NCBI RefSeq assembly: GCF_030013205.1
Contig: NZ_CP122648.1
Length of the DNA: 64,000 nucleotides
Source: Escherichia coli
Lineage (GTDB): Bacteria; Pseudomonadota; Gammaproteobacteria; Enterobacterales; Enterobacteriaceae
Direction: 5' to 3' (one strand)
The notes beneath the pieces were generated by a model. The model worked only from the letters and a program-made list of their open reading frames with translations. It made no database searches and was not told the origin of the DNA. The position numbers and the translations under genes were made by a program. Below are positions 22,484 to 23,093 of the stretch, in pieces. How positions within the stretch are numbered: position 1 is the stretch's first letter; each line of letters starts with the position of its first letter.

Positions 22484-23093
22484 TTTTACCTCTTTTTTTA
22501 CATCCCATGTTAACGGGGGTGCTTTCTCGCGTTATGCCTAAAAAACATACGCGCAATTGTTATAGTGGGAGGGGAAACGGCAGGTAATGTTCACTATCTT
22601 GCACTTTCAGACAAGTCCTTTGTAATAATCTGTTACATATAACTGAGGCGGGGAATTCAACCATTCCGGGAAATGTTATCCAGCGTTAAATTTTTCAAAA
22701 AACGTAACGGCAGATTTTTTCACTACCCTGAGAGGGGGATGATGGCTTAACGGCGATATGTTCTGCTATTTAGCGTTTTTCCTAGTGAGATAGTCCAGTT
22801 TCTGAAAAATAGCCAGTGTAATGTTTTGTAGGTCAATATTTGTTGCGTGTGTAAATTTAAATGATTTTAACCTAGTTCTTGCAATGTTTTTACATTGCCA
22901 CAGCATCGTGATCTTGATCACGAATGAATAGAAAATTTCGCTATTAAAAAAACAATTAACCTGCATTTTTGGTTATCCGCAAACGGATTACCTGATGATA
23001 ACGCTAAGCAATGGCATCATTGACGTTAAAAAGATGTTTTAAAAGAGGATAAAGAAAGGTTATGAATGGGGTAATCGGTGTTACCCCTTTTCT

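Follow-up and report, generated by a model that had tools for sequence, protein, structure and literature searches.

The dtpA–nth intergenic region of Escherichia coli: a stem-loop that follows nth and length-invariant DNA with candidate dtpA control sites

The genes dtpA (tppB/ydgR) and nth lie side by side on the minus strand of the 64,000-nucleotide stretch of Escherichia coli DNA analysed here (the window), which runs in the reverse orientation of K-12 (window position = 1735252 minus the K-12 coordinate). They are separated by a gap of 610 bp, 22484..23093 (K-12 1712159..1712768), in which the K-12 RefSeq annotation shows no features. This is the longest annotated non-coding gap within the 64-kb window, the runner-up being that between ydgH and pntA (523 bp); the interval between blr and ydgJ is larger, but is occupied by an IS1 element. 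A 610-bp gap belongs to the upper tail of E. coli gap lengths, yet is not extraordinary. GC content, re-measured in 100-bp windows, was 0.29–0.30 across 22800..22949, compared with 0.45–0.56 in the flanking genes. On its length, its rank and its AT-richness our measurements agree with the original prediction, which had also described the gap correctly as the 5′ control region of dtpA joined to the 3′ end of nth. Of 5426 complete E. coli genomes, 5423 carried the 801 bp around the gap at 95% identity or more, and the locus is ordinary core DNA of the species.

For comparison we used 80 Enterobacteriaceae species from about 25 genera, obtained in one scan with DtpA residues 1–100. The upstream neighbour of dtpA was nth in 79 of the 80 species, and for the remaining locus (L070) the upstream sequence was too short to decide. 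The gap measured 570–614 bp in 74 of the 79. The exceptions belonged to Kosakonia, Phytobacter and Intestinirhabdus, in which extra DNA was found directly after nth. Kosakonia and Phytobacter carried an additional gene, convergent with nth and coding for a membrane protein of 143–163 amino acids (Pfam UPF0093, E = 9e-18), within the variable nth-proximal part (1832..2323 in L073 and 1936..2367 in L041; also in L077 and L080). Most of the proximal and mid dtpA upstream blocks described below held their spacing to the start codon in these two genera, and the distal CRP/Lrp blocks were not detected there. The Intestinirhabdus gap (L046) was 738 bp long. The features of the E. coli locus are collected in Table 1.

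Table 1. Genes, conserved blocks and candidate sites at the dtpA–nth locus, in window coordinates
Feature	Position	Strand	Remarks
dtpA (tppB/ydgR)	20981..22483	minus	GTG start; 5′ side ends at 22483
dtpA 5′ leader, about 95 nt	22484..22581	minus	from conservation and folding
SD AGAGG	22489..22493	minus	
Small leader hairpin	22504..22517	minus	conserved, 5 bp; the 5 pairs kept in 22–25 of 25 species, with G-U/A-U exchanges
Leader hairpin	22528..22553	minus	sequence differs between genera
Conserved C/A-rich 5′ part of leader; A tract; A-rich SD region	within 22484..22581	minus	
Proximal dtpA promoter	22586..22614	minus	−35 TTGTCT 22609..22614, 17-bp spacer, −10 AACATT 22586..22591; PWM 5.2
Direct repeat TTATATGTAACAGATTATTACAAAG	22618..22642	minus	10-bp spacing, abuts −35; conserved; about −61 to −41; candidate activating OmpR site
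Block AAATTTAACGCTGGATAACATTT	22671..22693	minus	AC...AC 10 bp apart; about −114 to −92
Four conserved mid-region blocks	22709..22724, 22752..22771, 22784..22811, 22816..22829	minus	protein-site-like conservation
Direct repeat TGTTA-N6-TGTTA (ArcA-type response-regulator box)	22879..22894	minus	in most genera; degenerate in E. coli (TGTAAaaacatTGCAA)
CRP-type palindrome cGTGATCAAGATCACg	22907..22922		centre 22914.5, about −335 from the proximal start; two GATC sites
Lrp-consensus-like site TAGAAAATTTCGCTA	22929..22943		predicted; adjoins the CRP-type palindrome
Block CAGGTTAAT	22955..22963	minus	conserved; distal edge of the length-invariant region; then T7 at 22946..22952
nth-proximal spacer	22964..23067		low conservation
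C/U-rich, G-poor tract	23024..23067	minus	candidate Rho-utilisation region, from base composition
Stem-loop at the 3′ end of the rsx–nth operon	23068..23087	minus	6 nt beyond the nth stop; ΔG about −9 to −12 kcal/mol
nth	23094..23729	minus	stop codon 23094..23096

The stem-loop next to nth, GGGGTAA-tcggtg-TTACCCC, lies one base off the position given for it in the original prediction. On the plus strand it is directly followed by the T tract TTTTCTTC (23088..23095). Read in this direction, GGGGTAAtcggtgTTACCCC followed by TTTTCTTC was picked up in a scan for terminator-like sequences and folded with its flanks at −12.8 kcal/mol, and the plus strand carries the GC-rich stem-loop and U tract of an intrinsic terminator. 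On the nth strand the tail after the stem, AUUCAUAA, contains 3 U in 8 nt and no U tract, and does not have the form of an intrinsic terminator.

A stable hairpin (ΔG ≤ −8) was found after the nth stop codon in all 80 species, with sequences that differed between them. The median stability was −14.3 kcal/mol and the stem began at a median distance of 7 nt from the stop codon, compared with medians of −7.0 kcal/mol and 16.5 nt in shuffled controls. The sequence 3′ of the nth stop is poorly conserved among species, yet the hairpin is everywhere, and within Escherichia the stem sequence varies while pairing is kept. The tracts on either side are far less constant. On the nth strand, four or more of the first 8 nt downstream of the stem were U in only 23 of the 80 species, and four or more of the 8 nt preceding it were A, equivalent to the plus-strand T tract, in only 13. 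In E. coli the plus-strand tract is built from the 6 nt between stop and stem together with the complement of the stop codon, and is a lineage-specific peculiarity of Escherichia. Upstream of the hairpin, neither the terminator/promoter scan nor a position weight matrix (PWM) applied to 75 species gave a conserved plus-strand promoter; there was neither a promoter-like site from which a plus-strand transcript would enter the hairpin nor a conserved orientation of its tract. The position of the hairpin, conserved right after the nth stop in every species, therefore argues that it serves nth, and by these comparisons it belongs to nth. The plus-strand T tract noted in the original prediction is present, but the assignment of the hairpin to a plus-strand RNA found no support.

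In E. coli, 14 C and 4 G were counted in the 60 nt that follow the hairpin in the direction of nth transcription. C exceeded G downstream of the hairpin in 71 of 75 species, with an equal bias in a control segment. Dar & Sorek (2018; PMC6061677) describe, for Rho-terminated E. coli mRNAs, protective stem-loops that lack a U tail and have a rut site downstream, and it is by analogy to these that the C/U-rich tract is listed as a candidate Rho-utilisation region in Table 1. In its sequence features the nth hairpin resembles this class in being a stable stem-loop placed right after the stop codon, in lacking a U-rich tail and in having C-rich, G-poor sequence downstream. The stem-loop would end or protect the rsx–nth transcript. 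Given that the nth strand has no U tract and that a C/U-rich, G-poor stretch follows, the E. coli hairpin would most likely protect the 3′ end of an mRNA that is terminated by Rho; we regard the chances for and against this assignment, with its presumed dependence on Rho, as evenly balanced. Unlike members of the Rho class, some other genera, for example S. arizonae and some Citrobacter and Enterobacter, have at the same position a canonical U-tailed or symmetric structure resembling an intrinsic terminator. Bidirectional intrinsic terminators (A tract–hairpin–U tract) share with the E. coli hairpin an A-rich 5′ side, which reads as a U tract in the opposite direction. They usually separate convergent genes and are flanked by tracts on either side, whereas here the genes are co-directional and the only tract is antisense and confined to Escherichia. 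A separate hairpin with an 11-bp stem (22431..22458), inside dtpA codons 9–18, also has a T-rich tail on the plus (antisense) strand and was scored as terminator-like in the scan; on the sense strand it reads as an mRNA hairpin in the early coding sequence.

No hidden gene or structured RNA was detected in the gap. An Rfam scan at a permissive E-value gave noise only, and there was no conserved ORF in the gap, no frame being open across species. Conservation was equal in the three codon phases (0.70, 0.72 and 0.70), with no 3-base periodicity. Two ORFs, one of 38 amino acids on the plus strand over the hairpin and one of 66 amino acids in the sense direction, were discarded as not conserved. 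RNAalifold applied to a 388-nt block from 25 genera gave a consensus of −3 kcal/mol with no compensatory pairs. A structured long leader or small RNA was rejected on this essentially empty result, the only conserved structure being the 5-bp leader hairpin.

The promoter of dtpA could be placed with the help of a long-term stationary-phase evolution study, in which the same A→T change arose in three cultures at an intergenic position (+503/−108) between nth and dtpA. The change was described as ‘adjacent to the −10’ and raised dtpA mRNA approximately 23-fold, and mutations in the dtpA promoter sweep repeatedly in such cultures. In the window it corresponds to position 22591, the first base of the AACATT hexamer, and the mutant hexamer is TACATT. 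Together with the arrangement TTGTCT–17 bp–AACATT, this change therefore indicates that transcription would start near 22578..22581, giving a leader of about 95 nt. The DNA of the promoter and leader is nearly invariant across genera. With its two hairpins and A-rich SD region, the conserved leader may be a platform for post-transcriptional control. The sole recurrent antisense promoter hit of the PWM scan in 75 species falls inside this conserved leader. A CCTG-N6-CAGG palindrome in the promoter spacer was rejected as a conserved pairing, its covariation not exceeding that of controls.

The original prediction had considered the layout compatible with a long regulated leader of dtpA and possibly with an unannotated plus-strand RNA ending at the hairpin; on this reading the whole gap would be leader. 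The hairpin and T tract do exist on the plus strand, and the 100 nt proximal to the start codon are very conserved. However, the promoter lies only about 95 nt from the start codon, which leaves the AT-rich tract as upstream DNA; the hairpin tracks the nth stop in every species, its plus-strand tail is not conserved, and no promoter-like site was seen on that strand. We found nothing in the sequence comparisons that would support a plus-strand transcript, and consider this explanation very improbable.

That dtpA is controlled by OmpR, as the original prediction also stated, is supported by published work, in which both OmpR dependence and ChIP binding at dtpA have been reported. GadX and YdcI are likewise reported to bind or regulate dtpA. 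Low levels of OmpR activate dtpA and high levels repress it, as is the case for ompF, but dtpA is not osmoregulated. A dtpA fusion carrying −201 to +15 already shows both OmpR activation and repression, and DNA further upstream is therefore not needed for that response. Within the direct repeat that abuts the −35, TGTAACAGAT-TATTACAAAG contains AC...AC spaced 10 bp apart, a periodicity seen in OmpR-type sites and shared by the block at 22671..22693, and is nearly invariant; this repeat is probably the activating OmpR site. The block at 22671..22693 is a candidate site for a winged-helix (OmpR-type) or a LysR-type (YdcI) protein. The pairing of these proximal blocks with particular factors is one that we infer from their sequence.

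Upstream of the promoter, conserved blocks reach as far as 22963, a distance of some 480 bp to the dtpA start codon, and occupy approximately 385 bp of upstream DNA together with their spacers. Blocks that are 90–100% identical alternated with substitution-saturated spacers across 23 genera. The spacers have diverged past alignment even within Escherichia, but their lengths are unchanged. To measure this we used alignment-free distances between anchors. The distance from CAGGTTAAT to the −10 anchor was 363 bp in 63 of 72 species and 364 bp in 6; that from the CRP-type site to the −10 anchor was 322 bp in 54 of 66; that from the mid block was 209 bp in 49 of 50; and that from the block at 22671..22693 was 94 bp in all 76. 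In the same gap the nth-proximal part ranged from 89 to 136 bp (sd 16.5). A control spacer in the same genomes, the roughly 105-bp stretch between dtpA and gstA, had 19 different lengths, from 101 to 314 bp. The AT-rich tract is thus conserved in the form of protein-site-like blocks and not uniformly, its spacers having diverged, and it shows no conserved RNA structure.

These measurements bear on whether the DNA upstream of about −120 is simply a neutral AT-rich spacer, a ‘safe harbour’ whose conservation reflects nothing but low divergence. The nth–ydgR gap is a popular ‘safe’ or neutral landing pad for chromosomal integration, including genome-scale promoter reporter libraries, with no problems reported, and its RefSeq annotation is empty. 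Low divergence would not account for near-identical blocks alternating with saturated spacers in 23 genera, nor for an invariant length next to an nth-proximal part, and beside a neighbouring spacer, that vary freely. We regard neutrality as extremely unlikely. Within Escherichia, two deeply different haplotypes were seen in the spacer patches 22730..22785 and 22835..22900. The group formed by the window, K-12 and L027 is set apart from that formed by L003–L006 at as many as about 15 of 20 positions, with zero indels and with identical flanking blocks.

The distal end of the invariant region contains three adjacent candidate sites. At a fixed position, a CRP-type site with no more than two mismatches to TGTGA-N6-TCACA was found in 57 of 78 species, and with no more than one in 38. 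Most genera carry TGTGATCnnGATCAC(A) here, which matches the core of the CRP consensus. The E. coli site has two mismatches (cGTGA...TCACg), and such a match is at chance level when taken alone, with 25 matches in the window against 26 expected; the support for this predicted site is its conservation and not the E. coli match itself. The site has been lost in Kluyvera, Pseudocitrobacter, Kosakonia and a few others. The neighbouring Lrp-like site is the only match to YAGHAWATTWTDCTR with one mismatch in the 64-kb window, and the best of 105 hits; only its half-site AAATTTCTAT is conserved across genera. The ArcA-type direct repeat completes the module. ArcA itself was rejected as the E. coli factor, the box being degenerate in this species and no dtpA peak being listed in the supplements of E. 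coli ArcA ChIP-seq studies. An IHF site of the kind found at ompF was also sought, and none was present in the gap at up to one mismatch. The palindrome includes two GATC (Dam) sites (22908..22921), with 4 bp between them and their starts separated by 8 bp, which most genera keep in the form TGTGATCnnGATCAC. GATC sites occupied by CRP are known to remain unmethylated. A search of the Dam/GATC literature returned only unrelated papers.

Conserved CRP sites are almost always found about 40–95 bp from a start site. The dtpA palindrome resembles those of class I and class II CRP-dependent promoters in having, in most genera, the TGTGATCnnGATCACA core of the consensus AAATGTGATCTAGATCACATTT. Unlike them, it is some 335 bp away from the one start site that has support, far from the usual activating positions (−41.5, −61.5 and up to about −93.5), and no promoter of canonical geometry accompanies it. 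The distal module (22879..22963) might for this reason be a CRP-dependent promoter of its own, modulated by Lrp or a response regulator and producing either a dtpA mRNA with a leader of about 370 nt or an unannotated transcript, perhaps on the plus strand in the direction of the nth hairpin. The neighbouring conserved blocks do resemble a compound promoter, and in E. coli a transcript of the latter kind could terminate at the plus-strand hairpin and its TTTTCTTC. Against this, no conserved −10-like hexamer was found on either strand at the −41.5 or −61.5 geometry to the CRP site, and the PWM scan of 75 species gave no conserved sigma-70 promoter beside the module on either strand. The DNA towards nth is poorly conserved and length-variable, the plus-strand T tract occurs in 13 of 80 species, and in the sense direction neither an RNA structure nor an ORF is conserved and Rfam gave no match. 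A separate distal promoter, although the strongest competitor of the reading given below, therefore seems unlikely.

The reading that we prefer, and consider probable as a whole, is that the gap is a composite of the nth stem-loop, upstream control DNA of dtpA and a dtpA leader of about 95 nt. After the hairpin would come a variable spacer of about 100–130 bp and then approximately 385 bp of dtpA control DNA. Distal factors of the CRP/Lrp type, at sites about 335–365 bp upstream of the start, and proximal factors of the OmpR type would form one nucleoprotein complex of fixed geometry, by looping or wrapping of the DNA as with the distal F4 site of ompF. Its role would be to adjust the output of a promoter of the sigma-70 type (TTGTCT-17-AACATT) that is weak and depends on activators. 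Such a complex agrees with the ompF-like response of dtpA to OmpR levels. In the ompF upstream region the OmpR sites F1–F3 are joined by a distal site, F4, at about −380 to −350, and looping is involved. The two regions are alike in their OmpR-dependence, in having direct repeats by the −35 and in having conserved DNA 330–385 bp upstream. They differ in that the distal block of dtpA has CRP- and Lrp-like sites and not an OmpR site, in that dtpA has no IHF-like site, and in the absence of osmoregulation at dtpA.

The specific loop or wrap mechanism, which we draw by analogy with ompF, is put forward tentatively. A point against it is the location of the CRP-type site at −335, far outside the canonical activating positions. 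Moreover, helical phasing alone would permit indels of 10–11 bp, and looping leaves the strict invariance not fully explained. The 363-bp indel-free stretch may conceivably be a scaffold that tolerates no change of length between sites across the Enterobacteriaceae, an enhancer-like architecture at a sigma-70 promoter; we hold this somewhat less likely still than the looping or wrapping itself. In Salmonella, tppB reportedly responds to leucine and to anaerobiosis in old accounts, which agrees with the proposed mechanism.

The dtpA promoter, its control by OmpR, the gene pair and the use of the gap as a landing pad are already known. In the searchable literature we found no description of the family-wide distal CRP/Lrp-like module, of the strict length invariance or of the re-assignment of the hairpin to nth. 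If functional, the distal module would account for effects of carbon source, leucine and anaerobiosis on peptide uptake beyond the known OmpR site. A non-coding stretch whose length stays strictly the same over about 360 bp offers a clean and testable case of a spacing constraint in a bacterial promoter. Insertions at the landing pad may cut dtpA off from its distal control blocks, and they adjoin a terminator without a U tract on the nth strand.

Some further observations were made elsewhere in the window. The IS1 element between blr and ydgJ (30701..31467) has InsA/InsB ORFs and 24-nt terminal inverted repeats, and is flanked by a 9-bp target duplication, AGGTTTTTG, present as direct repeats at 30692..30700 and 31468..31476; it is missing from the otherwise near-identical strain K_EC180. 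The gene pdxY (19368..20226) is apparently disrupted, its sole open part being a C-terminal ORF of 173 amino acids (19705..20226). In a near-identical RefSeq genome pdxY, uidC and rstB are flagged as frameshifted; for uidC and rstB the flag comes from that genome and not from the window. Finally, rsxC shows tandem-like internal self-similarity (26160..26582), with segments 96 bp apart in offset that are 88% identical.
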